Positions 5,077-64,000 of a stretch of DNA of 64,000 nt are shown here, piece after piece. Source of the DNA: Endomicrobiales bacterium (GTDB lineage: Bacteria > Elusimicrobiota > Endomicrobiia > Endomicrobiales > JALOBY01); assembly GCA_963796955.1 (NCBI GenBank), contig CAWCNJ010000006.1:102691-166690 (forward strand), read 5' to 3'. Position numbers and translations under genes: made by a program. A model generated the notes under the pieces. That model did not search any database. It was not told where the DNA came from and saw only the letters and a list, made by a program, of their open reading frames with translations. Numbering within the stretch: position 1 is the stretch's first letter; each line of letters opens with the position of its first letter.

Positions 5077-5088
5077 GTTGCTTTTTTA

Positions 5089-5117
5089 TTGAAAATTCAG
5101 TAAGATTTTGTGTTGCC
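5089..5117 (+). promoter_or_regulatory. conserved upstream box, copy 1 (candidate regulator-binding site)
   Basis: TTGAAAATTCAGTAAGATTTTGTGTTGCC versus TTGAAAATTCAGTAATATTTGTTGTTACC at 41942-41970. The first 15 nt are identical. The box starts 61-62 nt upstream of the -35 hexamer in both copies. Confidence 0.5.
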
Positions 5118-5149
5118 AGCCTGAAAATACTGCAAAACGCATAAAAGAA

Positions 5150-5177
5150 TTGATATTTATAGTATTTAACATATAAT
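5150..5177 (+). promoter_or_regulatory. candidate promoter of giant gene A
   Basis: TTGATA (5150-5155), a 16-nt spacer, then TATAAT (5172-5177). The same hexamers and spacing occur upstream of gene B (42004-42031). Confidence 0.55.
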
Positions 5178-5189
5178 TTATAGTGACGA

Positions 5190-8100
5190 ATGAGCGTAAC
5201 ATTGCTCCGATTCACGTTTTTTTTATTTTGCATGGGACCTGCAATGCTCGGCCGCTCGATCTCGCGAATCGTACCATTCAAAAGCGCCATGGCCGCGATT
5301 ATTTTTGCGGTTATCGCGCTGTTGTTTTTTTCAATAGTTTCCAACGCGGCCCCAAACGCTCCCAGTAACCTGACGCAGTGCAGTTCCACCGGCCTTAGCC
5401 TTTCGTCGTTTACCTGGACCAATTCCACGCTTATCACCTCATCCTTCACGCTGACAACTGCGAGCGTTCACTATCGTATTCAGGTATCAACGGTCACTGA
5501 TGCAAACGGGGCGGCTGTTTGGAATAAAGGCTTATTCGTGGATGCTACCTCGGCGGCGTTGCTGCCTGCGGGCACTACCTGGTACGCCTGGACACCGGCC
5601 ATTCCAGCTTTCTATTGGTGGCGTGTCTCCTGTTTCGACGGTTCGAATGTGTATTCCTCAACAACTTCGGTTTTGCAAAGCGGTGGCCCGGCGGTGGTTG
5701 CCTGGAATACGCCCTTCGACCCGAAGTACCGGGAACCCATGCCGGGTGACGGTATCGGCGGCGGCGGCTCCAGTCTTGCCTGGGGCGACTTCGACGGCGA
5801 CGGGTATCAGGATCTTGCCATACTTGGCAACAGCAATAGCAGCGGTGACATAACCAAAGTGTTTCCCGGCAAGAGCGACGGTACATTCAACGCGGCGGTA
5901 ACCTTGCCTTCGGGGCAAACGTTCAGCTCTGGCGGTGTGGCCTGGGGAGATTTTAACAACGACGGTTTGCTTGACCTGGCCATTGCCGGCAAGAATAGTA
6001 CTACGGGTAATGGCTCAGTGCGCGTGTACCGAAATACCGGAGGCGCCTTCAGCGCCACATTTGTGTCGCCGGAAACCGTGGGATACAGCTTCTCCAATCT
6101 GGCCTGGGGCGACTATGACAATGACGGCTGCCTCAACCTGGTCGTAGCGGGGTGGACCGATAGCTATGCAATCGTGTCGCGGGTATATCACAATAATGGC
6201 AATGCCGGGTTCACCGTCGCCTACAATAATAACTTTGGAGTCGCCTCTACTGATGTCGGTTCTTGTGCCCCCTCGCTTCAGTGGCTGGATGTTGAAAATG
6301 ATGGCGATCTGGATCTCGCGATGGCCGGCAACGCGGGCGGCACCTACAGTATGTCAATATACCGCAACCAGAACAGTACCTTTGCGTTCGGCTCGGCCCC
6401 GGTCTTCGAATACGACCCTGTCTCCGCCGCCGCCTGGGGCGATTTTAACAACGACGGTTTTATGGATTTCGCGGGCGTTGACTCTAATTCCCGGGTAGCT
6501 GTTTTCCTCAACACCGGTAATTTCACCTTCAATACCGTGTCTCCCATTGTACTGACATCCACTATCAACAATTTCACGAACGTCGCCGCGGGTGACGTTG
6601 ATAATGACGGCCTCTCGGACGTATTTGTCGCCGGCAGCACCGGCACGGCATTGTATTACAATCGTAATGGAAGTTTTGTAAATCAACCCACCTTTCCATT
6701 CTGGCCGCTGTATGGTGACGAAAGTATTGCCCTTGCCGATTATAACGCCGATGGCGCCCTGGATGCCGCCTTTGCCGGCGGCGATCTTTTCAGTGCCGAC
6801 TACCTCAGGGTTTTTAACGGCAAGCAGGCGAATGCCGCGCCGGTGCCGCCAACTATTTCCACGGTGACATTTAGCTATAGCGCTACCCGAAGCACATTTA
6901 CCGTTGCCTGGGCCCCGGGATATTACGACGTAGGCCATTCTTCCAACTCGGTTTATTACAATGTGGAAGTCGCCACATACCCTACTACGCTGCAATCGGA
7001 TAATAAACGTGTCGTAAATTCAAACAAGTTCGTGGAGTCCTGGGATTTCGGCAGCCCGAACCTTGGCAGTTACATCCGTCCCGCGGTTTCCACCAACTGG
7101 GCCGGTGTTAAAGGTACCCAGATGGTTGGTTATACGATCGCACCTTCAACAAGTAATTATCTGCTGAACGCCACAACATTCTATTTCCGCGTGCAAACCA
7201 TCGATTCAGGCCTAATGCGCAGCGTCTGGTCGTCGGAATATGCCTGCATCGCCAGTTCCTATGTCGTTTTTACTAATCATGCTCCTGACGCACCCGCGAA
7301 CCTCGTCCAACTGGACGGCTCGTTTGTTTCACTCTCGTCTTTCAGCTGGACGAATTCCGGTACGATAATATCATCGTTTACGCTTACCGACCAGGATGCC
7401 GGCACTCAGGTGAAATACCATTTACAGATCACTACCGTCTCAGACTCCGGCCTTGCCACCTGGACCAGTGGTTACTTCCTGAATTATACGTCACCGTTGT
7501 TGAACCAGGGAACCACTACGTATACCTGGCCGGCATTAGCTGCGAATAAATTTTACTGGTGGCAGGTGTGGACGGAAGACGCAGGCGGTTTAGCTTCAAC
7601 ATCAACCTCAACTTCACTGTTAAGCGGCGGCCCGGCGGCGCTGGCGTATAAAACGGTGTATGATCCGAACGCAATGGATGTGCTGCCCGGCTGGGGTGTT
7701 GGTTACACTAAAACGGAACTGGCCTGGGGCGATATGGATAACGACGGCTACGCGGACCTGGCCATTGCGGGCGATGGTGAATTCAGAGTATTCAAAAACA
7801 ACAAAGACGGAACAATGGATCCCAACTCTATAGCGGTCGACCCTGCCTTGGGTGGCCTTAATACTGTTTCCGTTAAATGGGGGGATTTTAACAACGACGG
7901 TAAGCTGGACCTGGTAGAAATGGGTGGTTGGTGGTATGGGACTGGATACAATTTACGTGTGTATTATAACAACGGCGCGGGCGGCTTTGATCCAAACTAT
8001 GAAGAACCGGTACCCGATTGGGGGCTTGAAGGCGGCTGCGTGGCGCCGGGAGATTATGACAATGATGGAAATCTTGATATCGCTGTTATGGGATACGACG

Positions 8101-11100
8101 GATCGAACGCATATTTTCAGGTATACCGTAACAACGGCGACGGTACTTTTGATCCCGATTACATAGAGCCTCAACCAGGCTGGGGCACCTATGCGGGAAC
8201 ACTTGCCTGGGGCGATTATAATAATGACGGAGACCTGGATATAGCGGTACATGGCACTGATAGCTATTTGCGCATATTTAAGAACAATGGCAATGGAAGT
8301 TTTGACCCCCACCCAATAGAACTCGGTACCAGCGGTGATTGGGAGGCGCTTGCCTGGGGTGATTTTAATAATGACGGTAATCTTGACATATCTGGCCTGG
8401 ATTCTTCCGATTGGTTGTACTTATACACCAATAACGGCGATGGATCTTTTGATGACACGCGGGTAACTATAGACGGGGTAGCAGGTTCTAATAATAATAC
8501 TTTGTGCGTTGGCGACTTCGACAATGATGGATACACAGACATAGCGGGATCTTATGGTGTGGGGAATTACCCTTATGTTGATAACAGGGCGTATATTTAC
8601 CACAACAACAGCGGCGCAGGAACATTTGCAAAAAGCGAGATATTGCCCGGCTGGGGTGTTTCATTCGGCAGCCTTGCCTTTGCGGATTTTGACAACGACA
8701 ACGACCTGGATCTTGCGGTTTCCGGGCGGGAAAACAACTGCATAGATTATGCGACAGGTGGTTACAGAACATGTATCTACAAGAACAAAGAAGCCCAACT
8801 GGGCAACCCCAACACCCCGCCGACTGCGCCCACCGGCCTTACCGCGCTTTACGCCTACGACGTTAATACCTCAACGCTGACCCTGTGCTGGACGCCGGCG
8901 GCTTCTTACTACAACATAGAGCTGAGCACATTCCCTACCACGCTTTCGGGCGGCAATTTACAGCTGGCCACCACCGGCCATTACGAAATGCCCTGGAACT
9001 TCGGCAGCCCCAACACCGGCAATTACACACGCCCGCCGTCAAAAACATGGCCCGGCTTGAGCGGCACTAAAGCAGGCCAGCTCTACACCGTGCCGGATTA
9101 CGACATTGAACCCGGCGCAACCTACTATTTCCGCGCACAGGCGATAAATGCCAGCCTGATAAAGGGCCAGTGGTCTTCTGAGTTCTCAATCTGCCCCCAG
9201 GGCGCTTTTTCGCCGAACCCGCCGACAGGCATAAGCCAGTACAAAGAAAACGGTGGTGCTGTTTACCTGAGCTCTTACAGTTGGGTACAGGGTTCCGATA
9301 TCGTAGTGTCATCTTTTACGCTCACATCGCCCAACGCCGGCATGCAGGTACGCTACCGTATACAAATAACGACAGTAACGCTGCCAAATACGGCCGCAGC
9401 CGACTGGGGCCATGGGATACTGGTAGACTACACCTCCGGGTTGTTAACGCAAGGAGCTACAAACTATCACTGGCAGTTGCCGGGCAGTGTTTCAAGCCTG
9501 TGCTGGTGGCGCATAAGCTGTATAGACCAAAACGGTTATAGCTCAGAGCCTGTTCCGGTATTAAATGATGGCGGTGCTGCGATGGTGGCATATAAAACCA
9601 TTTTCGCGCCGAAGGCGCTTGACGTGATGCCCGGTTGGGGTGTCGTCTATTATAAAACAGGCCTGGCCTGGGGGGATATGAACAATGACGGCTGGCAGGA
9701 TCTGGCTGCTATAGGCAACAATAATTTTCTGTTGTTTAAAAACAAGAAAGATGGTACCTTTGACCCCATAACGGTTGATCCTGCCTGGTCCGGTGCGGCT
9801 ACCTCGGCCGCACTTAAATGGGGGGATTTCAACAACGATGGTAATTTAGACCTTGTAGCGCTGGGCTATACCGGCGCAGGAAATCTGCGGGTGTACTACA
9901 ACAACGGATCAGGCGGTTTTAGGTCCAGCTATCAGGAACCGATACCCGGTTGGGGGCTGTACAATGGTGATATAGCCCCCGGTGATTACAATAACGACGG
10001 CAACCTTGACATCGCGGTCATTGGAACAGACGGCTCGAACAACTATTTCCGCATATTCCGTAACAAAGGCGATGGGACATTCGATCCAAATCCGATAGAG
10101 CCTCAGCCTGGTTGGGGAACTTATGCGGGAGCGCTTGCCTGGGCCGATTATAACAATGATGGTGATCTTGATATAGCAGTAAAAGGTATAGATTCCGCTC
10201 TGCGTATATACAAGAACAATGGTGATGGATCGTTTTACTCTCCGATGGATCTCAGTTCGGTGGCGTATGGTGACTGGAACGCAATGGCCTGGGATGATTA
10301 CAATAACGACGGTTACCTTGATCTATTCTGCCAGGATTATAACGGCCTGGATCTTTATCAAAATAAAGGTGATGGGACGTTCAATACGTCGGGTGTGAGT
10401 GTATATAACGGGGCATCAGCAAATACATTTGCGATGTGCATCGGAGATTTTGATAATGATGGATATGCCGATATTGCCGATCTCGGTTCTATCAACGCAC
10501 ATCTTTATCATAATAACGGCGGTTCGGGAAGCTTTACCACAAGCCCGCTCAGGCCGGCCTGGGGAGTGCCAAACAACGTCAGCATTGCCTTTGCGGATTT
10601 TGATAATGACAACGATCTTGATCTGGCGGTGTCCGGGCAAGACAGCACTTCCCAAAATTTATTCTGCATCTTTAGCAATGAAGAAGCCCAGATGGGCAAC
10701 GCCAACACGGCGCCGGTGCCGCCTTCTGGCATACAATCGCAGACAGCCTACAACATAACAAAGTCGACGATGATCATAACCTGGCCGCCGGCCCAGTATG
10801 ACATCGGCAAATCTTCATGCACGCTTTCCTATCAGGTGGTTATCGCTACCTGTTCCATGACTCTGGCTGCGGATCAAAAATTAATAGCAGCACCAGGCTC
10901 GTTTATTACTACATGGGCCGCTGAGGGGGATAGCTTTGGAAACTATAACCGGCCTCCTGTAAAGATATGGGGAACCGATTCAACGCCCAGGCAGGGGTTT
11001 GGGTTATGCCTCAGTACGGCTTCTATTAAAGCTGACACCACTTATTATTACCGGGTGCAAACCATTGACTCCTGTCTTGCCCGCAGTACCTGGTCGGTGG

Positions 11101-12233
11101 AAGGCATGGTCTACATGGGTGTGGGCGCGCCCCCCGCTGCGATAACTAACCTTACCGCTCTGAAAGGTTCATCCGGCGGAGAAATTAAATTAAGCTGGAG
11201 CTCGCCCGGCGCCGACGGCACAGCAAATAATATTATTAACGGCGCCTTTAAAATACGCTATTCCACATACACAACGGGTTCTGCAAATTTCTGGACGGAT
11301 GCAGCATCCAACTGGGTAGATCAAACCAATAAATATCAGATTACAATACCTACTAATTCCATACCAGGCGTAACGCAATCAGCCACGCTTGTCGGCCTTA
11401 CACCGGGCGGAACGTATTACGTGCGCGCCTGGGCACGGGATGAAGTTGGCGTAGACAGCACCAGCTGGAACGGCAACTGGTCTGCATTGTCTAACGCAGC
11501 TACAGCCTATTCGATGTCGGCAACAACGCCGCAGGTGATAAGCGATCTTGTGGCTACCAACAATAGCGCGCTCAGCGCGATAACCTTAACCTGGACAGCT
11601 CCGGGAAGCAACGGGCAGACCGGCGACCTGAACGCCGGCTCGGCATTTAAGATAGAATACTCGACGGTAAATGTTATCAATACAAACAACTTTGCCGTTA
11701 TGCAGGCCACCATGGCAATACAGGGCGTAACAATTTCAACGGTTACAACGGCAATGAGCAGGCAGACCTATAATATAGGCGGACTTACAAACAACAAAAA
11801 GTACTGGTTCGCTATAGAGACGGAAAACTCCGGCGGTGTATGGTCAGCGTGGTATTCCTCGGCTCCCGAAGACGGTCATACTACCTACAACGTACTCGCA
11901 AGCACGGTTTGCTCATTCACCAATACCCCGCCGACCATATCCGCACTGGAACAACTGGATGGCTCACTGGTTTCCATGACCTCGTTTACATGGACCAACT
12001 CGGGAACCATTATCTCATCATTTACTATTAGCGATGCTAATTACGGCCAGCTGGTGCATTATAACATTCAAATCACTTCTGTCGTTACAAATAATGGCGT
12101 CGATTGGACTAACATTTTTGCAAGTTCACGTTCAGCGTTAATAAGCCAGGGAACCGTATCCTACACCTGGCCGGCCTTGACTCCAAACGCCTTCTACGCA
12201 TGGCGAGCAGGGCGGAGGATAGCTTCGGCCTGA
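5190..12233 (+). CDS. giant FG-GAP/VCBS + FN3-like repeat surface protein, gene A, N-terminal fragment (frame lost at 12209/12210)
   Basis: 2347-aa ORF. The likely true start is ATG 5244 (MLGRSISRIVPFKSAMAAIIFAVIALLFFSIVSNA|AP), which aligns residue for residue with gene B from ATG 42098. It is a signal-peptide-like N-terminus followed by three complete supermodules. The last 8 codons (GRRIASA*) are out of frame. Confidence 0.9.
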   Translation: MSVTLLRFTFFLFCMGPAMLGRSISRIVPFKSAMAAIIFAVIALLFFSIVSNAAPNAPSNLTQCSSTGLSLSSFTWTNSTLITSSFTLTTASVHYRIQVSTVTDANGAAVWNKGLFVDATSAALLPAGTTWYAWTPAIPAFYWWRVSCFDGSNVYSSTTSVLQSGGPAVVAWNTPFDPKYREPMPGDGIGGGGSSLAWGDFDGDGYQDLAILGNSNSSGDITKVFPGKSDGTFNAAVTLPSGQTFSSGGVAWGDFNNDGLLDLAIAGKNSTTGNGSVRVYRNTGGAFSATFVSPETVGYSFSNLAWGDYDNDGCLNLVVAGWTDSYAIVSRVYHNNGNAGFTVAYNNNFGVASTDVGSCAPSLQWLDVENDGDLDLAMAGNAGGTYSMSIYRNQNSTFAFGSAPVFEYDPVSAAAWGDFNNDGFMDFAGVDSNSRVAVFLNTGNFTFNTVSPIVLTSTINNFTNVAAGDVDNDGLSDVFVAGSTGTALYYNRNGSFVNQPTFPFWPLYGDESIALADYNADGALDAAFAGGDLFSADYLRVFNGKQANAAPVPPTISTVTFSYSATRSTFTVAWAPGYYDVGHSSNSVYYNVEVATYPTTLQSDNKRVVNSNKFVESWDFGSPNLGSYIRPAVSTNWAGVKGTQMVGYTIAPSTSNYLLNATTFYFRVQTIDSGLMRSVWSSEYACIASSYVVFTNHAPDAPANLVQLDGSFVSLSSFSWTNSGTIISSFTLTDQDAGTQVKYHLQITTVSDSGLATWTSGYFLNYTSPLLNQGTTTYTWPALAANKFYWWQVWTEDAGGLASTSTSTSLLSGGPAALAYKTVYDPNAMDVLPGWGVGYTKTELAWGDMDNDGYADLAIAGDGEFRVFKNNKDGTMDPNSIAVDPALGGLNTVSVKWGDFNNDGKLDLVEMGGWWYGTGYNLRVYYNNGAGGFDPNYEEPVPDWGLEGGCVAPGDYDNDGNLDIAVMGYDGSNAYFQVYRNNGDGTFDPDYIEPQPGWGTYAGTLAWGDYNNDGDLDIAVHGTDSYLRIFKNNGNGSFDPHPIELGTSGDWEALAWGDFNNDGNLDISGLDSSDWLYLYTNNGDGSFDDTRVTIDGVAGSNNNTLCVGDFDNDGYTDIAGSYGVGNYPYVDNRAYIYHNNSGAGTFAKSEILPGWGVSFGSLAFADFDNDNDLDLAVSGRENNCIDYATGGYRTCIYKNKEAQLGNPNTPPTAPTGLTALYAYDVNTSTLTLCWTPAASYYNIELSTFPTTLSGGNLQLATTGHYEMPWNFGSPNTGNYTRPPSKTWPGLSGTKAGQLYTVPDYDIEPGATYYFRAQAINASLIKGQWSSEFSICPQGAFSPNPPTGISQYKENGGAVYLSSYSWVQGSDIVVSSFTLTSPNAGMQVRYRIQITTVTLPNTAAADWGHGILVDYTSGLLTQGATNYHWQLPGSVSSLCWWRISCIDQNGYSSEPVPVLNDGGAAMVAYKTIFAPKALDVMPGWGVVYYKTGLAWGDMNNDGWQDLAAIGNNNFLLFKNKKDGTFDPITVDPAWSGAATSAALKWGDFNNDGNLDLVALGYTGAGNLRVYYNNGSGGFRSSYQEPIPGWGLYNGDIAPGDYNNDGNLDIAVIGTDGSNNYFRIFRNKGDGTFDPNPIEPQPGWGTYAGALAWADYNNDGDLDIAVKGIDSALRIYKNNGDGSFYSPMDLSSVAYGDWNAMAWDDYNNDGYLDLFCQDYNGLDLYQNKGDGTFNTSGVSVYNGASANTFAMCIGDFDNDGYADIADLGSINAHLYHNNGGSGSFTTSPLRPAWGVPNNVSIAFADFDNDNDLDLAVSGQDSTSQNLFCIFSNEEAQMGNANTAPVPPSGIQSQTAYNITKSTMIITWPPAQYDIGKSSCTLSYQVVIATCSMTLAADQKLIAAPGSFITTWAAEGDSFGNYNRPPVKIWGTDSTPRQGFGLCLSTASIKADTTYYYRVQTIDSCLARSTWSVEGMVYMGVGAPPAAITNLTALKGSSGGEIKLSWSSPGADGTANNIINGAFKIRYSTYTTGSANFWTDAASNWVDQTNKYQITIPTNSIPGVTQSATLVGLTPGGTYYVRAWARDEVGVDSTSWNGNWSALSNAATAYSMSATTPQVISDLVATNNSALSAITLTWTAPGSNGQTGDLNAGSAFKIEYSTVNVINTNNFAVMQATMAIQGVTISTVTTAMSRQTYNIGGLTNNKKYWFAIETENSGGVWSAWYSSAPEDGHTTYNVLASTVCSFTNTPPTISALEQLDGSLVSMTSFTWTNSGTIISSFTISDANYGQLVHYNIQITSVVTNNGVDWTNIFASSRSALISQGTVSYTWPALTPNAFYAWRAGRRIASA
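5682..6712 (+). repeat. 1,031-bp tract near-identical to 50714..51743 in gene B
   Basis: Line-by-line comparison finds one substitution (A at 6136 versus G at 51167; CLNL versus CLDL) and one T indel (6263/6264 versus 51295). Flanks diverge abruptly upstream of 5682 and gradually after 6712. Confidence 0.9.
5700..6825 (+). repeat. 7-bladed FG-GAP/VCBS beta-propeller A1
   Basis: Seven blades counted: LAWGDFDGDGYQDLAI, VAWGDFNNDGLLDLAI, LAWGDYDNDGCLNLVV, LQWLDVENDGDLDLAM, AAWGDFNNDGFMDFAG, VAAGDVDNDGLSDVFV, IALADYNADGALDAAF. Confidence 0.85.
7641..8790 (+). repeat. 7-bladed FG-GAP/VCBS beta-propeller A2
   Basis: Seven blades counted, from LAWGDMDNDGYADLAI to LAFADFDNDNDLDLAV. Ends at YKNKEAQLGNPNT. 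Confidence 0.85.
9581..10680 (+). repeat. FG-GAP/VCBS beta-propeller A3
   Basis: Runs from LAWGDMNNDGWQDLAA to IAFADFDNDNDLDLAV. Ends at FSNEEAQMGNANT. Confidence 0.8.
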
Positions 12234-38653: not shown

Positions 38654-38656
38654 ATT

Positions 38657-40354: not shown

Positions 40355-40362
40355 GGCCGTTC

Positions 40363-40380
40363 CATGCAAACATGGTTGCA
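40363..40380 (+). terminator. weak hairpin after the OMP-TPR gene
   Basis: ATGCAA (40363-40368) pairs with TTGCAT (40375-40380) around a 6-nt loop. Only a short T-rich tail follows. Confidence 0.25.
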
Positions 40381-40474
40381 TTTAGTATCCTTTTAAATTA
40401 ATTTTGGATTGATATATTGTACATGTCAGTTAAATGTTGGCTTGATATTGTTGTCAAAATAGCTTAAACTTGAC

Positions 40475-40503
40475 TTGACTATGTTAACATTAGTGTGTAT
40501 AAT
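40475..40503 (+). promoter_or_regulatory. near-consensus promoter of ATPase gene 2, geometry implies a leaderless mRNA
   Basis: TTGACT (40475-40480), a 17-nt spacer, then TATAAT (40498-40503). The A of ATG 40510 is the 7th nt after the -10 hexamer, the same geometry as at 3798-3833. Confidence 0.55.
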
Positions 40504-40509
40504 TGTGGT

Positions 40510-41832: not shown

Positions 41833-41892
41833 TACCCAAGTAACCTTGAGTACTAAAACGATGGCCGCGTTACGTATGATGGTGCATTGTTT

Positions 41893-41930
41893 AAAAACAC
41901 ACACTTAGATTAATTGGTGTGTGTTATTTA
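41893..41930 (+). terminator. rho-independent terminator (ACACAC hairpin), copy 2
   Basis: CACACAC (41898-41904) pairs with GTGTGTG (41917-41923) around a 12-nt loop (TTAGATTAATTG). TTATTTATT follows. It is homologous to 5041-5076. Confidence 0.6.
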
Positions 41931-41941
41931 TTGCTTTATCG

Positions 41942-41970
41942 TTGAAAATTCAGTAATATTTGTTGTTACC
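41942..41970 (+). promoter_or_regulatory. conserved upstream box, copy 2
   Basis: TTGAAAATTCAGTAATATTTGTTGTTACC; see 5089-5117. Confidence 0.5.
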
Positions 41971-42003
41971 TGCCATACAGACGCCCTTAAACGTCTAAAT
42001 GTA

Positions 42004-42031
42004 TTGATATTCATACGATTCATCTTATAAT
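42004..42031 (+). promoter_or_regulatory. candidate promoter of giant gene B
   Basis: TTGATA (42004-42009), a 16-nt spacer, then TATAAT (42026-42031). It is followed by the conserved ATAATTTATAGTGA. Confidence 0.55.
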
Positions 42032-42067
42032 TTATAGTGAAGAAGTTACTGTATACCTTTTTTACTC

Positions 42068-51529: not shown

Positions 51530-51743
51530 CTGTTTTCCTCAACACCGGTAATTTCACCTTCAATACCGTGTCTCCCATTGTACTGACATCCACTATCAAC
51601 AATTTCACGAACGTCGCCGCGGGTGACGTTGATAATGACGGCCTCTCGGACGTATTTGTCGCCGGCAGCACCGGCACGGCATTGTATTACAATCGTAATG
51701 GAAGTTTTGTAAATCAACCCACCTTTCCATTCTGGCCGCTGTA
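50714..51743 (+). repeat. 1,030-bp tract near-identical to 5682..6712 in gene A
   Basis: See 5682..6712. This copy carries the 1-nt deletion that breaks gene B. Confidence 0.9.
51295..51296 (+). other. frameshift site 2 (one T missing relative to the gene A copy)
   Basis: Gene A reads ggt tct tgt gcc ccc tcg ctt cag tgg ctg gat (6258-6290). Gene B reads ggt tct gtg ccc cct cgc ttc. Restoring the T gives GSCAPSLQWLDVENDGDLDLAMAG and runs straight into ORF 51352..61947. Confidence 0.9.
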
Positions 51744-57700: not shown

Positions 57701-60700
57701 GCCAGTGGTCCACCTGGCAGTCTTCCTCGGACGCGGCGGCCTACAATCTTCGAGCCAGTACGGTATGTAAGTACACAAATTCCGCCCCTCTGGCGCCCTC
57801 AGGCCTGGTACAGTACGACGGTTCAATGGTAAGCCTTTCGTCGTTCACCTGGACGAACTCTAGCACGATCATCTCATCCTTCACGCTTACCGACCCGGAT
57901 GCAGGCCAGCAGGTGAAATACTGTTTGCAGATCACCACCGTTTCCAGCGCCGGTCTTGCCACTTGGACGAGCGGCTATTTTTGGAATTATACTTCCCCGC
58001 TTTTGAACCAGGGCACGACCACCTATTACTGGCCCGCGCTTACAGCAGGTAATTACTACTGGTGGCGCGTTTGGGCGATAGATGCGTTCGGCGCGACCTC
58101 CTCAACCACCACGGCACTGATGAGCGGCGGCGCGCCGGTGTTTGCCTACAAAACGCACTTTGATCCCGTTGCCAGAAATATAATCAACGGTTTAAGTGTG
58201 GCCAATGCATTTGCCGCTCTTGGCGATTTTGACGGTAACGGCACGCTGGATCTGGCGATCACCGGCAATACGGGTTCCGGCTTTGTCAGCAGGGTTTATA
58301 AAAATAACGGTGACGGGAGTTTTAACCAGGCGCCGGTATCCATACCGGTCATCCCCCTCGGCAGCGGCTTGTCCGACGGAGCGGTAGCCTGGGGCGATTT
58401 TGACAACGATGGGGATCTGGATATCGCAATTAACGGCACGCTCAATCCCGGCAACAGGTTGTTTGTTTTCCGCGGTAACGGTAATGGAACATTCAACCCG
58501 TCGCCGATATACCCAAACCCAGGGTGGGGCGATACCGGAATGATCACCTGGGCTGATTTCAACAATGACGGCTACCTGGACCTTGCTGCTTCGGGATACG
58601 ACGGATCGGCAGGCCACAATTATATATTCCTGAACAACCGCCTTGGCGATTTTAATCACACTCCCGTGGAGCCTGATGCCACCTGGGGGCCGGCTAGCTT
58701 TGACAACTGGGTTTCCGCCGCCGATTTTAACAATGACGGTAATCTTGATCTTGCTGTCGTCGGCACCGATGCAGGATACAACGGGCATGCAAGGATATAT
58801 AAAGGTAATGGCAATGGTACCTTTAACGCTTCCTATGTATCGCTTGATGCCAACAACGATCAGGGCTATTCTTCCATCACCTTCGGTGACTATAACCTTG
58901 ACGGCAACCTGGATGTCGAGGTGGGTGGTAACGATCTGTTCGCGGTGAACACGAATAACGGTAACGGTACTTTCGGAACGGCTGTAACGCCTGAAGGCGG
59001 GGCCGGCGGCGGGCAGTTCGGTAACAATTTTGGCGGTGTATTTGCTGCCTGGGCTGATATTAACAACGACGGTAAACCCGATATGGTGGTCAGCGGGTAT
59101 CGGGAAACGAATTCGGGCATGGTTCGTCTTGAGCTGAACAACGGTAATGGAACATTCACTCCCACTGAGATCCAGCCGGCATTGCAAAGTTTCTGTCAGG
59201 TAGCACTTGGTGACCTGGATAACGACGGCGATGTCGACGCGGTAATGTTGGGTTCTTCTCCAAATTATTATCTTGCGGCCTTCTTCAACAAGAACAGTGA
59301 TATGGGGAATGCGAATACCATCCCTGTGCCGCCCGCAGGCTTGTCGTATCAGTCTTCGTATAACATAACGAATTCAACGGTTGTCGTTACCTGGCCTGCG
59401 GCGCAGTATGACGCAGGTATGTCTTCCCGCACCCTTTCTTTCCAGGTCGTCATTGCATCCGTGCCCATGACGCTCGCAACCGACCAGACGAAGATAGCAT
59501 CGCCGGGCGCGTTTTTAACTACCTGGGTCTCTCAGGGCGACGGATTCGGGGCGTTTAACCGGCCGAACTTCAGCTACCGGTTGAACCTGAGCACCGCGGG
59601 AATTACCGCAGATACCTCCTATTACTACCGTGTACAGACGATAGACGGCAGCCTTGCGCGCAGCACCTGGTCTGCGGAAAGTAAGTTGTATATGCCTATG
59701 GGCCTGGCGCCTGCTGCCATTACCAACCTTACCGCATTGAAAGGCAATTCCGGCGGCGAACTGAAACTAAGCTGGACCTCTCCGGGCGCGGACGGCACCG
59801 CGAACAACATATACGGCGGCGTCTTTAAAATACGCTATTCCACCTACACCATCGCATCAGCCGGCTTCTGGACGGACGCGGCAACCAACTGGACGGATCC
59901 GGTAAACAAATATCAGATAACGATACCCACAAATTCTGTGCCGAGCGTAACGCAGTCGGCAACCCTTGTCGGGCTTACTCCCGGCGGGACGTATTACATC
60001 TGCGCCTGGACGAGGGATGAAGTGGGTGTGGACAGTACCAGCTGGAACGGTAACTGGTCGGCGTTGTCCAACGGCGCAACTGCCTGGGCTATGACGGCAA
60101 CTGCGCCGCAGGTGGTAAGCGACCTGGTGGCTGTCAACAATGCCGCATTGGGCGTCATCAATCTTACCTGGACTGCTCCGGGCGGTAACGGACAAACGGG
60201 CGACCTGAACGCAGGTTCCGCCTTCAAGATAGAATATTCGACGGTGAACGTTATAACTACCAATAATTTTACCGTCATGCAGTCCACTATGGCTATCCAG
60301 AGCATAACTATTTCAACGGTAACTACTGCCATGAGCAGGCAAAGCTATAACGTAGGAGGGCTTACCAGCGGCAAACAATACTGGTTCGCGATCGAAACGG
60401 AAAATTCCCAAGCCGCCTGGTCTACGTGGTACTCTTCAGCTACAGGGGACGGTCATACCACCTACAACATACTGGCAAGCACGATCTGTTCATACACCAA
60501 CCATGCGCCAACCATATCCAGTCTGGAACAGTTGAACGGTTCGATGGTGTCAATGTCTTCGTTTACCTGGACGAATGCCGCTACGATCATTTCGTTGTTC
60601 ACTATCAGGGATACCGACCTGGGCCAGCAGGAGAAATATCATATACAAATATCTACGGTTATAAGTGCGTCGGGTCTTGCCACCTGGACGAGCGGGTATT

Positions 60701-61947
60701 TTGTCAATTATACGTCGACGCTGATAACCCAGGGTACCACGGCATATTATTGGCCCGTGCTGACGGCCGGCAATTTCTATTGGTGGCGCGCCTGGGTGGA
60801 AGACCAGTATGGCCTATCGTCGGCTACTTCAACGGCGCTGGTAAGCGGCGGTGCTGCGGTACTGGCGTATAAAACAGTGTTCAATCCGATATACACTGAA
60901 CCGCAGCCGGGGTATGGGTATGGTGTAAGTTTCGGCTCATCGCTCTCCATGGGTGATTTTGACGGCGATGGGTATCAGGATATCGCGGCCTGCGGCATAC
61001 GGCAGGATGGATATTACACCGCCGTGTATTTGAACAATAGTTTCGGTGATGGAACATTCAGTGCAAACTATATTGAGCCACAGCCAGGGCTGGGCGGGGT
61101 AAGCAACGGCGATGTCGCCTGGGGTGACTTCAATAATGACGGCAAACTTGACCTTGCGGTCACGGGCTACAACGGCGATCCGGGTATACTCAGGGTGTAT
61201 ATCAATGCGGGGAATAATTCATTCTCCGGATACGTTGAGCCGACTCCCGGCTGGGGCCGTTATTGGAGCGCCGTCGCCTGGGGTGATTATAATAACGACG
61301 GTAACCTTGATCTTGCGATGTACGGCGGCGATGACAGCAGCTCCGCAGACGGTATATGCAGGATATACCGCAATAAGGGCGACGGGTCGTTCGATCCGAA
61401 CTATTATGTGCCGACGGCCGGCTGGGGCATGAGTTACAATAATACCAATATCGGACGTATCGCCTGGGCGGATTATGACAACGACGGCGATCTGGATATC
61501 GCTTTCAGCGGCGACGATAACAGCGGTGTGCATGCGCAACGCGTGTACCGCAACAACGGCGACGGCACTTTCTCGGCCGCGCCGGTGTTTACATTAAGCT
61601 GGAATGCAGATGATATAGCTTGGGGCGACTACAATAACGACGGCTTTTTGGACCTCATGGCTACGTCCGGCAATACGGTGGTGGTATATCCCAATAACGG
61701 CAATGGTACCATCAACTCGACGCCGGTCACCTTAGTCACAAATACGCTAAGCGCATGCCATCTGGTGCTGGGCGATTATGATAACGACGGTAATACCGAT
61801 GCCGGCGTGATCGGCCAGTCTAATGGCGCCGGTGTTCTGAAATTCTATCATAACCATGGCAACGGTACGTTTGATGCCACAGATGTTACGCCGCTGCCGG
61901 GATGGGGCATTTACGGCAAGGGTAACATAAGGCTCTGGGGATGTTAA
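51352..61947 (+). CDS. giant FG-GAP/VCBS + FN3-like repeat surface protein, gene B, middle fragment (3531 aa)
   Basis: It continues propeller B4 mid-blade (MAGNAGGTYSMSIYRNQ...), so ATG 51352 is not a genuine start. It contains four further supermodules and terminates inside blade 7 of propeller B8 (GKGNIRLWGC*). Confidence 0.9.
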   Translation: MAGNAGGTYSMSIYRNQNSTFAFGSAPVFEYDPVSAAAWGDFNNDGFMDFAGVDSNSRVAVFLNTGNFTFNTVSPIVLTSTINNFTNVAAGDVDNDGLSDVFVAGSTGTALYYNRNGSFVNQPTFPFWPLYADESIALADYNADGALDAAFAGGDLLGADYFRVFNGKQTNTAPVPPSPSVTLTYSGAAVNRSTFTVTWPPSQYDTGNSSNSLYYQVEVSTFPTALSGDALRITTGGRYQNPWNFGTPGLGGFVRPAVSTSWAGVTGSQMQGFMFSPSTATLAASTSFYFRVQTIDAGLKRSTWSAEYMCVIATYAPSGVTDLTATTNIGINGISLAWTAPGDHALSGNLTSGSQFKIEYSSVGIINTANFDSPPANLAATAIYISTVTTARSRQSWSVPNLQNNTVYWFAVKTENSAGLWSVWQSSADVATYNLQASTRCVAVNHAPNAPANLVQYDGSFVSLSSFTWTNSSTIISSFTLTDPDAGQQVKYCLQITTVSSAGLATWTSGYFWNYTSPLLNQGTTTYYWPTLTAGKFYWWRVWAIDAANATSSTSTALSSGGAAVLTYKTDFDPNGIRIVPGLGLYGNDVYSQLALGDFDNNGTLDLAVTGEDINSLFDFRVYSGNGDGTFNFLPALRNDGTYFASLAWGDYNNDGDLDIALSAGNIENTIGLYVYRNKGNGTFDTTPLQPAGAGVGIGGGLAWGDFNNDGFLDLAASGWINATTEKFYIYKNNCNGSFNTTPVQPDSAMLFGGYEGSPISCADFNNDGLLDISVCADYWQSRLYKNDGDGTFTITNVGVTDVPYGQAYAFGDYDNDGSLDIASPGGVYQNNGAGSFSMGPALPSNGDYYCPSSWADFNNDGKLDLVESGGFDYEYLIELTNNGSSGFSGTEIMPGFGLGDASLAVGDVDNDGDTDIIASGGNGAANLLLFKNKNSEMGNANIAPVPPSGLSYQSSYFISNSTVIITWPAAQYDTGMSSRTLSFQVVIASAPMMLASNQSLITSPGAFITTWAAEADGFGTFNRPVAKIWGSDISPKFGYQLNLTTASITGDTSYYYRVQTIDGDLKRSTWSAESKLYIPMGPAPAAITNLTALTGASGGEIKLSWTFPGADGTANNLVGGVFKIRYSSYTTGSAGFWTDAASNWVDQVNKYQVTIATNATLSKTQSATLVGLTPGVTYYARAWTRDEVGVDSTSWNGNWSALSNGATAWAMTATSPQVVSDLVATNNSAIGAVKLTWTAPGGNGQTGDLNAGSAFKIEYSTVNVITTNNFTAMQSTMAIQSITISTVTRAMTTQTYNVGGLTNNKQYWFAIETENSQGNWSTWYSSATGDTHTTYNILASTVCSFANHQPAISNLEQLNGSLVSMTSFTWTNSGTLMSSFTISDADYGQQVRFVVQITSATNNAGAANWATLFQTARSGLIPQGTTTYIWPALNPNAFYWWRAWAEDSYGLSSTTSTALVSGGSAVLAYKTPFNPAFIEPQPGWGIGWHGPAVSWGDFNGDGYQDLAIGGNDSNNQYMRVYMNNGAGGFNSYVEPQPGHGVRLGEMQWGDFNNDGKLDLAVTGYDGDPGLCRVYINAGNGTFSASYVDATSGWGRYYGNLAMGDYNNDGNLDLAVIGTADINPLRVFRIYRNKGDGTFDTNFVSPQSGWGISGDDSNSTDYTRVAWGDFENDGDLDIATCGIDTNNTQVMRVYKNNGDGSFNSTAALITNTVYDLAWGDYDNDGFLDVIAASATTICAFRNNGNGTLNATPVNILGNLNIANTRISLGDYDNDGNIDIAATGQDIASGQGMLRFYHSLGNGNFDQSPVNILPGWGMYQCGAMALADYDNDGGIDIAVAGQGSGTATDCYLRVFNDMQAQLGNANTAPTAPAISSMTFSYSAPQSTFTITWLPGQYDVSHSSNSVYYELAVSTFSTSLSADSKRLTTGGCYQSPWNFGTPNLGSFIRPAVSTNWAGVKGTQMVGYTITPSTNDYLLNATTFYFRVQTIDSGLTRSAWSSEYTCLASSYVALPGTPAGITDLTAANNSSISGISLVWTATGDSGQSGNLTSGSVFKVEYSTVGILTTGNFDSPPAGLAVTTVNISTTATAMSRQSYNLPGLLTNTTYWFAIKTENGEGQWSTWQSSSDAAAYNLRASTVCKYTNSAPLAPSGLVQYDGSMVSLSSFTWTNSSTIISSFTLTDPDAGQQVKYCLQITTVSSAGLATWTSGYFWNYTSPLLNQGTTTYYWPALTAGNYYWWRVWAIDAFGATSSTTTALMSGGAPVFAYKTHFDPVARNIINGLSVANAFAALGDFDGNGTLDLAITGNTGSGFVSRVYKNNGDGSFNQAPVSIPVIPLGSGLSDGAVAWGDFDNDGDLDIAINGTLNPGNRLFVFRGNGNGTFNPSPIYPNPGWGDTGMITWADFNNDGYLDLAASGYDGSAGHNYIFLNNRLGDFNHTPVEPDATWGPASFDNWVSAADFNNDGNLDLAVVGTDAGYNGHARIYKGNGNGTFNASYVSLDANNDQGYSSITFGDYNLDGNLDVEVGGNDLFAVNTNNGNGTFGTAVTPEGGAGGGQFGNNFGGVFAAWADINNDGKPDMVVSGYRETNSGMVRLELNNGNGTFTPTEIQPALQSFCQVALGDLDNDGDVDAVMLGSSPNYYLAAFFNKNSDMGNANTIPVPPAGLSYQSSYNITNSTVVVTWPAAQYDAGMSSRTLSFQVVIASVPMTLATDQTKIASPGAFLTTWVSQGDGFGAFNRPNFSYRLNLSTAGITADTSYYYRVQTIDGSLARSTWSAESKLYMPMGLAPAAITNLTALKGNSGGELKLSWTSPGADGTANNIYGGVFKIRYSTYTIASAGFWTDAATNWTDPVNKYQITIPTNSVPSVTQSATLVGLTPGGTYYICAWTRDEVGVDSTSWNGNWSALSNGATAWAMTATAPQVVSDLVAVNNAALGVINLTWTAPGGNGQTGDLNAGSAFKIEYSTVNVITTNNFTVMQSTMAIQSITISTVTTAMSRQSYNVGGLTSGKQYWFAIETENSQAAWSTWYSSATGDGHTTYNILASTICSYTNHAPTISSLEQLNGSMVSMSSFTWTNAATIISLFTIRDTDLGQQEKYHIQISTVISASGLATWTSGYFVNYTSTLITQGTTAYYWPVLTAGNFYWWRAWVEDQYGLSSATSTALVSGGAAVLAYKTVFNPIYTEPQPGYGYGVSFGSSLSMGDFDGDGYQDIAACGIRQDGYYTAVYLNNSFGDGTFSANYIEPQPGLGGVSNGDVAWGDFNNDGKLDLAVTGYNGDPGILRVYINAGNNSFSGYVEPTPGWGRYWSAVAWGDYNNDGNLDLAMYGGDDSSSADGICRIYRNKGDGSFDPNYYVPTAGWGMSYNNTNIGRIAWADYDNDGDLDIAFSGDDNSGVHAQRVYRNNGDGTFSAAPVFTLSWNADDIAWGDYNNDGFLDLMATSGNTVVVYPNNGNGTINSTPVTLVTNTLSACHLVLGDYDNDGNTDAGVIGQSNGAGVLKFYHNHGNGTFDATDVTPLPGWGIYGKGNIRLWGC
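53041..54155 (+). repeat. 7-bladed FG-GAP/VCBS beta-propeller B5
   Basis: Seven blades counted, from LALGDFDNNGTLDLAV to LAVGDVDNDGDTDIIA. Ends at FKNKNSEMGNANI. Confidence 0.85.
55744..56920 (+). repeat. FG-GAP/VCBS beta-propeller B6
   Basis: Runs from VSWGDFNGDGYQDLAI to MALADYDNDGGIDIAV. Ends at FNDMQAQLGNANT. Confidence 0.8.
58131..59295 (+). repeat. FG-GAP/VCBS beta-propeller B7
   Basis: Runs from AALGDFDGNGTLDLAI to VALGDLDNDGDVDAVM. Ends at FNKNSDMGNANT. Confidence 0.8.
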
Positions 61948-62025
61948 TAATGACGGTGTTTTGGATGTTGCCGTAACAGGGGGCGATGCAGGCAATAATC
62001 CCTATTTCCGCGTTTTCCAGAATAT
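60852..62025 (+). repeat. FG-GAP/VCBS beta-propeller B8 (contains frameshift 3)
   Basis: Runs from LSMGDFDGDGYQDIAA through the frameshift to GDVNNDGVLDVAV. Ends at FQNMEAQLGAGNT. Confidence 0.8.
61927..61930 (+). other. frameshift site 3 (one extra A)
   Basis: The observed sequence is ggt aac ata agg ctc tgg gga tgt taa. Removing one A (ataagg to atagg) gives GNIGSGDVNNDGVLDVAV. GWGIYGKGNIGSGDVNNDG then aligns without gaps to GWGINGCGSIALSDYNNDG of propeller A4. Confidence 0.8.
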
Positions 62026-64000
62026 GGAAGCTCAGCTGGGCGCCGGCAACACAGCGCCTGTGCCGCCTGCTATTTCCAATGTTAATTTCAACTACAGCGC
62101 TTCACGCAGCACGTTTACCATAACCTGGAATCCTGCGCAATATGACGTAAGCCACTCATCCTGCTCGCTCTATTTCAACGTGGAAGCTTCTACTTCGCCG
62201 ACGACGCTTTCCGCGAACAAAATGGGAATGACCGTACCCAACAGCCATTTTGTGCAGACTTGGAATTTCGGCAGTCCAAATCAGGGCAGCTATATCCGGC
62301 CCTCAGTTTCCACCAACTGGGCCGGTGTTGCCGGCACGTCGATGGTCGGCTATACTCTGGCTCCCGCGACGAATACCTGGCTGTTGAACGCTACCACGTT
62401 TTATTTCCGCGTCCAAACCATCGATTCTGGCCTGATGCGCAGCACCTGGTCGGCGGAGTTTTCCTGCTTTGCCTCTACCGGGGCGGCCGATATCACGCCG
62501 CCGGCGGCGATAACGAACATCGCCGCAGTTACCGGTTTTACAGCCGGAACGATAAATTTAGCCTGGACCGCTCCCGGTGATGACGGCATAACCGGCAGCA
62601 TAGTCGGGGGTGCCTTCAAGATCAGATATTCCACTTTCACGCCTGCATCGTGGAGCGATGCGGCCGCGAACTGGACGGATTTCACCAATAAATACCAACT
62701 CACGATCGCGACGGATGCGGTGCCCAGCGTTACGCAGTCGTATACCCTCACCGGTTTAACGGGTGGCGTAACGTACTATATTCGCGCCTGGACGCGCGAT
62801 GAGGTTGGCGTAGACAGCACCAGCTGGAACGGCAACTGGTCGGCGTTGTCTAACGGCGCTACCAGCTGGGCGCAGATAAACCACGCGCCCAACGCCCCGG
62901 CGAACCTTGCGCAGCTGGACGCTTCGCTGGCAAATCTCTCATCCTTCACCTGGACGAATTCAGGCACGATAATTTCTTCATTTACGCTCACCGACCCCGA
63001 CGCCGGCACACAGGTGCGGTTCAATCTGCAAATAACTTCCGTTACAACCGGCGGCGCGGCCGATTGGTCAAGATTGTTCGTCAGCACCCGTTCCGCATTA
63101 TTAAATCAGGGGACTACAACGTTTATCTGGCCGACGTTGAACCCGAACGCCTTCTACTGGTGGCGCGTATGGACGGAAGACAGCGGCGGTCTTACCTCTT
63201 CGACCTCTACTGCCCTGATGAACGGCGGACCGGCTGTTCTTGCTTACAAAACGCCGTTTGACCCGAGGTTCGTTGAGCCTACACCGGGCTGGGGATGCGG
63301 GCATTACGGCTCGGCGCTGGCTTGGGGAGATCTTAACGGCGACGGCAATCAAGAACTTGCGGTAGCGGGTATCATAGGCACAACACCGCAAACACACATA
63401 TACATGAACAATGGCGATGGCACATTCAACCCGTCGTATAACACCCTTCCATCGGGCGTAGAGATCGGCTGTCCGGACCTGCAATTTAGTGATTTTAATA
63501 ACGATGGAAAAATGGACCTGCTTGCCGCCGGCTGGCCCAGCGCCGACCCCGGTATCGTAAGAATATATCTTGGCAATGGCGATGGCACATTAAATCCCAC
63601 GTATGTTGACGCGATGCCCGGTTATGGCAGGTATTGGATATCGGCCCGCCTCGGCGATTATGATAACGACGGTAACCTGGATATCGCGATAACCGGTTCT
63701 GATGATGCCGGGCCGCAGACCTCTACCTTCAGGATATATCACAACAAAGGAGACGGGACATTTGACGCTAATTTCATAGAGCCAAACCCCGGTTGGGGAG
63801 TTTCAAATCAGGGACCAGGTTGGGATCCTGTTGGTGGTCGTCTGCTCTGGGGCGACTACGATAATGACGGCGACCTGGACATCGCCTTATGCGGCCAGGA
63901 CATTAACAACAACCAGCTGATGCGCATCTACCGCAACAGCGGTACGGGTACGTTTTTTAGCGCAACGCCAATTATGCAGGTCAGCGATATAAACGATATT
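61931..64000 (+). CDS. giant FG-GAP/VCBS + FN3-like repeat surface protein, gene B, third fragment; 3' end outside the window
   Basis: Frame 2 is open from 61931 to the window edge, exactly 690 codons: GSGDVNNDGVLDVAVTGGDAGNNPYFRVFQNMEAQLGAGNTAPVPP... followed by QYD, FN3-D and WWR modules and the first four blades of propeller B9. It is not listed in the ORF track because it has no ATG start or stop. Confidence 0.85.
63230..64000 (+). repeat. FG-GAP/VCBS beta-propeller B9 (truncated by window end)
   Basis: LAWGDLNGDGNQELAV, LQFSDFNNDGKMDLLA, ARLGDYDNDGNLDIAI, LLWGDYDNDGDLDIAL. It is colinear with propeller A4 (12270-13040). Confidence 0.8.

Follow-up and report, generated by a model that had tools for sequence, protein, structure and literature searches.

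Bacterial seven-bladed propellers of the integrin type, with Ca motifs in nearly all blades and "sometimes two tandem copies" per protein, were described by Chouhan et al. in 2011 and assumed at the time to be cytoplasmic (PMC3192720). The propellers reported here resemble these bacterial FG-GAP (VCBS) propellers (PF13517/PF01839) in their seven blades of ~55 amino acids (aa), which are more regular than those of integrins, but differ from them in number and setting. Within a 64,000-nt window from an Endomicrobiales bacterium of the phylum Elusimicrobiota (assembly GCA_963796955.1, contig CAWCNJ010000006.1, positions 102,691 to 166,690 of the forward strand), we find two giant genes that we judge to be paralogous, G1 (5190..38653) and G2 (42068..64000). 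Instead of one or two propellers, they encode 11 and at least nine, respectively, in a fixed W-P7-Q frame (P7, seven-bladed propeller; W and Q, flanking modules) within proteins of >7,000 to 11,000 aa that bear predicted export and anchoring signals. We read G1 and G2 as probably (about 60%) Sec-exported, outer-membrane-anchored, calcium-stiffened and multivalent adhesin fibres.

Other described systems share single aspects of this locus. SprB of Flavobacterium johnsoniae, a 669-kDa repetitive adhesin, has a C-terminal domain (CTD) of type B, is expressed together with SprF, the adjacent PorP-like barrel, and is SprF-bound at the surface (PMC9143113). G1 is likewise giant and repetitive, with a putative C-terminal sorting region and an adjoining gene for a FadL-type barrel of the PorP/PorV family. 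It differs in its Elusimicrobiota host, its FG-GAP/FN3 repeats, a barrel fused to tetratricopeptide repeats (TPR), and CTD and barrel scores below the family cutoffs; the locus is known from the 64-kb window alone, which holds no evidence of gliding motility or of a type IX secretion system (T9SS) core. With the integrin alpha headpiece (propeller plus thigh) and CRTAC1, it shares a seven-bladed Ca-loop FG-GAP propeller followed directly by a beta-sandwich. G1 has no transmembrane or cytoplasmic tail, beta-subunit partner or calf domains, its best structural matches (9etn, 8w30, 4o02, 3vi4) show 10-15% sequence identity, and Ca loops occupy ~92% of blades versus three to four of seven in integrin alpha. 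The likeness to an integrin headpiece holds only at the level of the propeller fold. We rejected a metazoan-type integrin alpha subunit, as neither Integrin_alpha2 nor other integrin leg models matched in Pfam scans of the supermodule pieces and C-terminus, and the protein ends in a putative beta-sandwich CTD, not in a transmembrane helix.

Very large proteins with serial seven-bladed propellers or adhesion-type repeats are also known from Oscillospiraceae (giant tandem RCC1-propeller proteins) and Omnitrophota (giant adhesin-like proteins), for which cell-cell binding has been proposed (bioRxiv 10.1101/2023.11.21.568195). These belong to other phyla, use RCC1 rather than FG-GAP blades and repeat a single domain instead of a multi-domain supermodule. 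Proteins of >5,000 aa have been reported to be enriched in Elusimicrobia (PMC11573180), and the literature we searched contained no paper on multi-propeller FG-GAP giants or on a W-P7-Q supermodule. All parts of G1 and G2 belong to known folds or families, and the proteins fall into the known category of giant repetitive surface adhesins, in which they are extreme in scale: 11 propellers per protein and 20 in the locus make up the largest serial integrin-type array found, compared with two in the literature searched and at most ~7 in relatives. An earlier reading of this window from its letters and translated frames (hereafter the sequence-only reading) had called single propellers the norm and 20 extraordinary. 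This is right in degree, but tandem pairs have been published (PMC3192720) and relatives carry 2 to ~7.

The grammar that this reading had proposed, repeated 20 times, was recovered by HMM counts and clustering. FN3-like domains were collected with an in-house hidden Markov model (HMM) seeded on one module and iterated, which yielded 62-63 domains, and all-against-all BLAST clustering of 62 of them gave 20 W (11 in G1, 9 in G2), 19 Q (11 and 8), 11 D, 11 E and one odd domain. FN3-class calls together with a blade HMM then defined the boundaries and contents of 11 units in G1 and nine in G2 within the window, i.e. 20 propellers, the twentieth being partial. Each unit runs W-P7-Q and is followed by nothing, D, E or D-E, so that the FN3-D/E extension is optional as proposed, except for an E-insert-D order in G1 unit 10. 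Exactly seven blades lie between W and Q in 19 of 19 complete units, extending a count previously made in four propellers, and the ~140 blades expected from it compare with 137 counted. Consensus motifs noted earlier for W (FYWWR..ED..GL.S.TS...GG.A..AYKT.FDP) and Q (N.EAQ.GN.NT.P.PP and W.P.QYD...YYFR.QTID..L.RS.WS.E) reappeared in alignments of the copies.

All long open reading frames (ORFs) of the window, and with them all features described here, lie on the + strand. Bare W-P7-Q units of G1 are found at 5343..7229 (unit 1), 7275..9173 (unit 2), 11919..13876 (unit 4), 21338..23260 (unit 8) and 29984..31954 (unit 11). Q is followed by D in unit 5 (13913..16201), by E in units 7 (18977..21277) and 9 (23291..25585), and by D-E in units 3 (9204..11852) and 6 (16253..18919). 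Unit 10 (25646..29932) reads W, P7, Q, E, insert, D, and its W-P7-Q portion (25646-27619) is the supermodule that we modelled. G2 begins with a bare unit 1 (42194..44065) and continues with D-E in units 2 (44096..46810), 5 (52684..55323) and 7 (57778..60429), E in units 4 (50366..52623) and 6 (55390..57717), and D in unit 8 (60496..62827). Its unit 3 (46877..50302) consists of W, P7, Q, a 248-aa insert, D and E, while unit 9 (62879..64000) comprises W and blades 1-4 and is cut by the window end at 64000.

Both genes are interrupted by single-nucleotide frameshifts. G1 joins ORFs 5190-12233 and 12200-38653 into 11,154 aa, whereas G2 joins ORFs 42068-51529, 51352-61947 and 61931 onward into at least 7,311 aa and exceeds the window. 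Frameshift 1 (12207..12216, ~12212), within the W module of G1 unit 4, reflects one absent G in GCAGGG(G)CGGAG; putting it back yields FYAWRAGAEDSFGL, with the length of the W consensus. The sequence at frameshift 2 (51296..51304) lacks one T that its paralogous counterpart at 6265 has (GGTTCTTGTGCC versus GGTTCTGTGCC). Frameshift 3 (61930..61940, ~61936) is caused by one surplus base in CTCTGGGGATGTT, in a Ca-loop blade (NIRL|GDVNNDG) of the propeller of G2 unit 8. The deposited assembly itself contains these frameshifts, as the public protein library lists 3,153-aa and 2,347-aa fragment ORFs (P0241, P0242). Because the frames are open and domain-coherent on both sides of each position, and remain so for thousands of codons downstream, the most likely origin of the three frameshifts is an error of assembly or polishing, or else a very recent change. 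We judged programmed frameshifting or phase variation unlikely, given runs of only 2-4 nt and the position of one shift within a near-identical repeat.

That repeat is a 1,163-bp segment with 98.8% DNA identity between the propellers of G1 unit 1 (5682-6844) and G2 unit 4 (50714-51875). It contains frameshift 2 and points to a recent event of gene conversion or duplication, or else to faulty assembly at this place. It also lends some substance to the view that the whole array is an assembly artefact or a decaying pseudogene pair, a grammar without current function, since mis-assembly or polishing errors are plausible in such a segment and the source is a metagenome-assembled genome (MAG) with three 1-nt frameshifts. 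The remaining repeat pairs, however, share only 71-92% DNA identity, and hence reads are distinguishable; at 38-91% protein identity, the copies are diverged paralogs and not collapsed assembly repeats. Long open frames past each frameshift and the independent presence of the grammar in other metagenomes (P0001, P0249, P0007, P0290) likewise speak against this explanation. So does the ratio of nonsynonymous to synonymous substitutions (dN/dS) between young paralog pairs, which at 0.07-0.3 indicates that the copies are under purifying selection. We consider an artefact or pseudogene pair very unlikely and take the repeats, as judged from these comparisons, to be real, diverged and selected.

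The propeller unit (~360 aa) was recognized by Pfam FG-GAP_3 (PF13517) with 156.5 bits (cutoff 26.9; E=2.6e-46) in six stretches and by FG-GAP (PF01839) with 53.8 bits (cutoff 22.1; E=1.6e-14), both above the gathering score. An AlphaFold2 model of one W-P7-Q unit (G1 unit 10; alignment of 16 paralogs) had a mean predicted local distance difference test score (pLDDT) of 72.5, rising to 85-92 in the propeller, and displayed 28 strands over residues 124-508. Foldseek searches of this propeller against the PDB returned seven-bladed FG-GAP propellers with a probability of 1.00, namely CRTAC1 (9etn) first and then the alphaV, alphaM, alpha6, alpha4 and alpha5 integrin headpieces (E ~3e-8 to 3e-7). 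The list also included aldos-2-ulose dehydratase (4a7z) and the teichuronic-acid-bound UmbA4 (9oee). Profile, model and structural matches thus agree with the seven-bladed, integrin-alpha Ca type named in the sequence-only reading.

Blades follow the consensus xAWGD-[YF]-[ND]-N-D-G-x-L-D-[LI]-A-V...R-[VI]-[YF]-x-N-N-G-[ND]-G-T-F. Of the 137 blades, 126 (92%) carry the complete D.[DN].[DN]G..D motif, which is found in 15-19 of 19 copies at each blade position; the first Asp is conserved in 137 and the Gly in 135 of 137. The earlier statement that each blade carries D-x-D/N-x-D-G-x-x-D was therefore slightly overstated, as 11 blades are without the complete motif. Blade 7 stops after strand 3 and passes directly into the N.EAQ linker, while the linker preceding each propeller (AVLAYKTPFDPRYVEPTPGWG) resembles the tail that strand 4 and the 4-1 loop form in internal blades (FRIYRNNGNGAFSPNYIEPETGWG). 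This sequence mimicry and the strand count lead us to infer a 3+1 "velcro" closure of the ring, in which the AYKT.FDP segment would supply the last strand of blade 7. The GG.A..AYKT.FDP tail, formerly counted as part of the WWR module, is accordingly better assigned to the propeller. For the one supermodule modelled, the propeller could in this way be closed, as the sequence-only reading expected.

Ca motifs in such propellers occupy the loop region between strands 1 and 2 (PMC3192720). In an alignment of 16 units, column identity peaked in the Ca loops (0.77) and the NNGDGTF 3-4 turns (0.72), and its lowest values were 0.33 for the 2-3 loops and 0.43 for strand 4 with the 4-1 loop. The per-position comparison proposed earlier thereby separates a conserved from a variable set of loops. 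In integrin-type propellers, the 2-3 and 4-1 loops make up the ligand-binding face, opposite the Ca loops, and the 20 propellers may hence combine a common scaffold with differing putative binding faces.

The same conservation pattern bears on whether the proteins form a structural surface layer, a sheath or a cell-cell cohesion matrix, with propellers and FN3 domains serving mainly as self-associating blocks instead of ligand-specific heads. Export and anchoring signals would be identical under both views, a Ca-type scaffold with the motif in 126 of 137 blades is highly regular, and apart from one beta-helix insert no recognizable ligand-binding or catalytic domain appeared in the library scans. 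Variability between copies is nevertheless concentrated at the putative ligand face, which favours diversified surfaces over uniform lattice contacts, and a strict series of domains over more than 11,000 aa typifies fibres rather than two-dimensional lattices. A structural layer is unlikely on this balance, and we favour adhesin fibres. If the loop assignment holds, 20 paralogous propellers with a conserved Ca-loop scaffold and divergent putative ligand-face loops would constitute a natural experiment in the diversification of binding surfaces after duplication, and a potential source of regular, Ca-stabilized scaffolds.

The flanking modules were predicted to be beta-sandwiches by AlphaFold2 and Foldseek, in line with the sequence-only reading. 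That reading did not recognize WWR and QYD as named families, and the first W and Q copies scanned indeed gave no Pfam or NCBIfam match at E<0.01; a second Q copy from the window was equally negative in Pfam. Searches of wider families, however, connected both to known ones. Another W copy from the window matched PF25788 (Ig_Rha78A_N) with E=0.0019 and 18.9 bits, under the cutoff of 27.4, and 19 of 35 W-family sequences (one window copy plus 34 relatives from an exhaustive profile search) matched this model with a best E of 1.6e-11. In the PDB, the W-family profile aligned with the gp130 FN3 domain (E=0.01, nearly full-length), with titin and chitinase FN3 domains and with rhamnosidase N-terminal domains, and W was modelled as a beta-sandwich at a pLDDT of ~60-90 within the W-P7-Q model. 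W is, on these profile matches, probably a divergent, sub-threshold member of the FN3-like PF25788 family. For Q, 6 of 33 family members matched fn3 (PF00041; best E 3e-6), and the Q profile matched FN3 domains only in the PDB, split around a ~45-aa insert. A separate AlphaFold2 model of Q (33-sequence alignment; pLDDT 75.7, predicted TM-score 0.75) retrieved the FN3 domains of POMGNT2, cytokine receptors and PTPRZ as top Foldseek matches (E ~1e-3, TM ~0.45). We assign Q to FN3 with a ~45-aa insert, a placement that is supported at the fold level, with family-level membership below threshold. W and Q are thus better described as diverged FN3-type sandwiches than as new modules.

By their scores, D and E are ordinary fn3 domains, E lying above the cutoff of 25 with 26.9 bits and D just under it with 22.6 bits. 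When the in-house HMMs of W, Q, D and E were iterated, each ended up with one common set of 62-63 domains, a convergence that we did not accept as sole proof of a single homologous family. Profiles compared directly gave weak results: W and D aligned in hhalign with E=7e-4 over 103 columns at only 27% probability, and alignments of Q with E and of W with Q were confined to the F-G strands. For this reason, the assignment of W and Q relies on Pfam scans of the wider families, the PDB profile searches and the Q structure.

Beyond the supermodules, the proteins contain two inserts, a stalk and a tail. The insert between E and D of G1 unit 10 (27956..29596; G1 aa 7590-8136) comprises beta-helix-like NN.VY repeats, a choice-of-anchor Q match (NF041518, 30.3 bits, above the cutoff of 25) and one fn3 domain (E=0.0026); a PDB sequence search with it found no match. 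It may be a polysaccharide-binding or lyase-like module. In G2 unit 3, the 248 aa inserted between Q and D (48839-49582; G2 aa 2258-2505) matched nothing in Pfam, NCBIfam or PDB sequences. Between the last supermodule of G1 and its C-terminal domains, 13 regularly spaced HMM matches mark a stalk of tandem ~98-aa Ig/FN3-like repeats (31964..35794), which match SusE (E=1.8e-8) and Ig_Rha78A_N (E=1.9e-6) and are nearer to PF25788 members than W is. An FN3-type tail follows (35807..37903; D, fn3, D and further fn3-like domains; fn3 70.4 bits), and then a conserved C-terminal unit (37901..38650), the last ~105 aa of which (38336-38650) form a putative T9SS-like C-terminal sorting domain.

These modules could alternatively belong to a carbohydrate-active scaffold that degrades polymers at the cell surface, as a giant enzyme or binding complex with the beta-helix insert as its lyase-like part. 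Its propellers would bind or process polysaccharides, FG-GAP propellers being known from aldos-2-ulose dehydratase. The insert with its choice-of-anchor Q match, the relationship of W and the 98-aa repeats to the rhamnosidase N-terminal domain and SusE, the Foldseek matches to aldos-2-ulose dehydratase (4a7z) and UmbA4 (9oee) and an FG-GAP relative fused to beta-glucosidase domains (P0006) all fit such a role. Yet no catalytic family scored in the pieces scanned, and the insert occurs once in 20 units, its PDB sequence search being empty. We regard a degradative scaffold as quite unlikely and retain the adhesin interpretation for the following sections.

Both genes appear to encode secreted products; this secretion and anchoring context, like the frameshifts, went unnoticed in the sequence-only reading. 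Their true start codons are likely the ATGs at 5232 (G1) and 42086 (G2), the ORF starts at 5190 and 42068 probably lying too far upstream. From these ATGs, 39-aa Sec signal peptides were predicted by eye for G1 (5232..5348; MGPAMLGRSISRIVPFKSAMAAIIFAVIALLFFSIVSNA|AP) and G2 (42086..42202; MENVMVVRLCLRTVNSKSATLAIIFAVAALLFLPSVSMA|TS); equal in length, they combine a basic n-region and a hydrophobic core with the cleavage-type sites SNA|AP and SMA|TS, respectively. At the other end of G1, the CTD matched two models, each under its cutoff: CHU_C (PF13585) with 25.7 bits against 27, and TIGR04131, for T9SS type B, with 25.6 bits against 35. Both models align over nearly their full length and end 2-4 residues from the G1 C-terminus, so that position and length fit. 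Local jackhmmer searches linked the CTD to the very C-terminal ends of numerous FG-GAP proteins that are annotated as FlgD_ig or T9SS type A and found the last 250 aa of G1 in P0262, P0350 and P0285. A search with the 249-aa G1 C-terminus gave no homolog in the word-indexed database, in which no protein above ~1,150 aa was listed.

Four nucleotides past the G1 stop codon begins a gene for a 565-aa PorV/PorP-like barrel with a C-terminal TPR (38657..40354). Its N-terminal ~300 aa matched the PorV_fam profile NF033709 at positions 4-325 of 326 with 61.8 bits (cutoff 90; E=7.8e-17), and PorP_SprF (PF11751) scored E=0.0037 and 17.3 bits (cutoff 22.3). The C-terminal part has TPR matches; PorE of the T9SS likewise has a TPR. 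These scores place the product as a distant relative of the PorV/PorQ family of barrels, not as a certified member. The pairing of giant gene and PorV-like gene recurs in three further loci, two of them labelled Elusimicrobia. In an uncultured Elusimicrobia contig (L003, 7384-8997) and a groundwater Elusimicrobia MAG (L002, 20192-20320), the PorV-like homolog directly follows a related giant P7-Q gene; in L001 (13397-14296) it lies 4 kb downstream of such a gene.

Taken together, we propose the following course. The 39-aa signal peptide would direct G1 to the periplasm. By analogy with SprB and SprF, the T9SS/FlgD-Ig-type CTD and the downstream PorV/PorP-like barrel would pass it across the outer membrane and anchor it there. 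Outside, it would form a beads-on-a-string chain of 11 seven-bladed propellers, each closed by the strand of the preceding AYKT.FDP linker and set apart from the next by two to four spacers of FN3 type (W in front; Q, D and E behind), with the 13 Ig-like repeats and further FN3 domains adjoining. With about 50 beta-sandwich domains of roughly 3.5-4 nm each and its 11 propellers, such a fibril would by our estimate measure about 0.2-0.3 um. As nearly every blade has a Ca loop (DxDxDGxxD) on one face, extracellular Ca2+ should stiffen each propeller. Since the 2-3 and 4-1 loops are the most variable between copies, the 20 propellers would offer 20 different binding surfaces, and attachment to polymers, to particles or to other cells would be multivalent and perhaps multi-specific.

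Several points weigh against this interpretation. Domain architecture, motifs and gene pairing were observed, but export, anchoring, Ca2+ binding and adhesion are predictions, and the loop-to-face assignment is taken from integrin topology rather than from model coordinates. The Q model is of only moderate confidence (pLDDT 75.7). Both the CTD and the PorV-like matches stay under curated cutoffs, and the CTD subtype is ambiguous, direct matches pointing to type B and the iterative search to type A or FlgD_ig tails. The G2 C-terminus lies outside the 64-kb window. With three frameshifts in the public assembly, G1, G2 or both could be inactive in this genome. Finally, to our knowledge, the T9SS is restricted to Bacteroidota and the FCB group. 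The literature searched likewise contained no paper tying T9SS-type components to Elusimicrobia.

Set against this background, the conserved pairing of giant genes with PorV/PorP-like genes in Elusimicrobiota suggests T9SS-type cargo handling beyond the FCB group. Elusimicrobiota might, speculatively, use a simplified or divergent T9SS-like route, made up of a C-terminal beta-sandwich signal and a dedicated PorV/PorP-TPR barrel beside the cargo, to display lineage-specific giant multi-headed integrin-like adhesins. Each of these would present up to 11 Ca-stiffened propellers with their own ligand faces for combinatorial attachment to particles, partner cells or prey cells. We put this forward as a doubtful, low-probability extension of the adhesin interpretation.

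A more specialized use, in predation or episymbiosis, has been proposed for the Omnitrophota giants; as such a device for attachment or delivery, the protein would have its effector beyond the window. Giant genes have been proposed to mediate adherence to other cells (bioRxiv 10.1101/2023.11.21.568195), the C-terminus of G2 does lie beyond the window, and Foldseek gave weak matches to propeller regions of Tc toxins. As these have low TM-scores (0.25), and the more than 18,000 aa examined yielded no domain of a toxin, peptidase or cell-wall hydrolase, such a device seems highly improbable.

To our adhesin interpretation, relatives in other genomes add a taxonomic context. The Q pattern occurred at three loci among 185,579 species-representative genomes, two of them from Elusimicrobia, one with an ORF of at least 6,683 aa and three P7-Q pairs; a further four loci were found in JGI metagenomes. 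A search of 1.84 billion cluster representatives with the W profile returned 318 proteins with E<=1e-3, of which 15 reached E<=1e-30. Outside the window's own ORFs, the W-P7-Q grammar was present only in P0249, P0001, P0007, P0290 and possibly P0302. P0249 (JGI 3300063113) reads P-Q-W-P7-Q-E-D and is 50% identical to G1, P0001 reads P-Q-W-P7-Q, P0007 W-P7 and P0290 P-Q-W, while P0302 is a 211-aa fragment in which W is preceded by a weak partial Q match. Identities for P0249, P0001 and P0290 ranged from 37 to 50%. Six to seven P7-Q-FN3 units are encoded by a gene in L005 (JGI 3300056623), and two to three P7-Q pairs each in L001, L002, L003 and L007; these loci and L009 are without the W module. 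Overall, relatives have 2 to ~7 propellers per gene, none reaching 11 units, and all are fragments or shorter arrays. As far as these searches indicate, the P7-Q pair is a recurrent building block in Elusimicrobia-like lineages, and the W-P7-Q supermodule is rare.

Strong W modules without propellers occur in another set of large proteins. Many metagenomic proteins with W-type modules but no propellers (P0243, P0245, P0248, P0251, P0254, P0257-P0259) share a conserved ~140-aa C-terminal domain (LWLRLDMP..S.T…QEI.L.IRAESP), which is also found at the end of the L005 gene and apparently takes the place that the CTD has in G1. The L005 gene itself is broken by an ISL3-family transposase (13544-14701) and one further frameshift.

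Database coverage of such giants is uneven. The 120 matches listed by the word-indexed protein search were all of at most 1,152 aa and did not include the giant ORFs of the window, and giants appear under-represented there; the exhaustive library, in contrast, contains the 3,153-aa and 2,347-aa window fragments. Because frameshifts split giant repetitive genes in public assemblies and giants seem to be missing from the word-indexed database, their true architecture is easily overlooked, which we consider a warning for annotation.

G1 and G2 had been described as two adjacent genes. They are separated, however, by the PorV-like gene (38657-40354) and an AAA_14+DUF4143 ATPase gene (40495-41832), and the assembly splits them into two and three ORFs, respectively; the region 38657-42067 between them is devoid of the repeat system. 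The 5' regions of G1 (5080-5360) and G2 (41935-42215) are ~80% identical and have in common the ATG and a promoter-like element (TTGATA-16-TATAAT, 11/12) at 5150..5177 and 42004..42031.

An AAA_14+DUF4143 ATPase gene also precedes G1 (3833-4972), such that one copy stands just 5' of each giant gene. With only ~28% identity between them, compared with ~80% for the 5' regions of the giant genes, the ATPases are not part of a recent segmental duplication, and we rejected a joint duplication of ATPase and giant gene. The window further contains a partial ABC-F ATPase gene (84-1097) and a TypA/BipA gene (1964-3769), and the nearest named matches of this TypA come from Elusimicrobia MAGs, with 74-82% identity.

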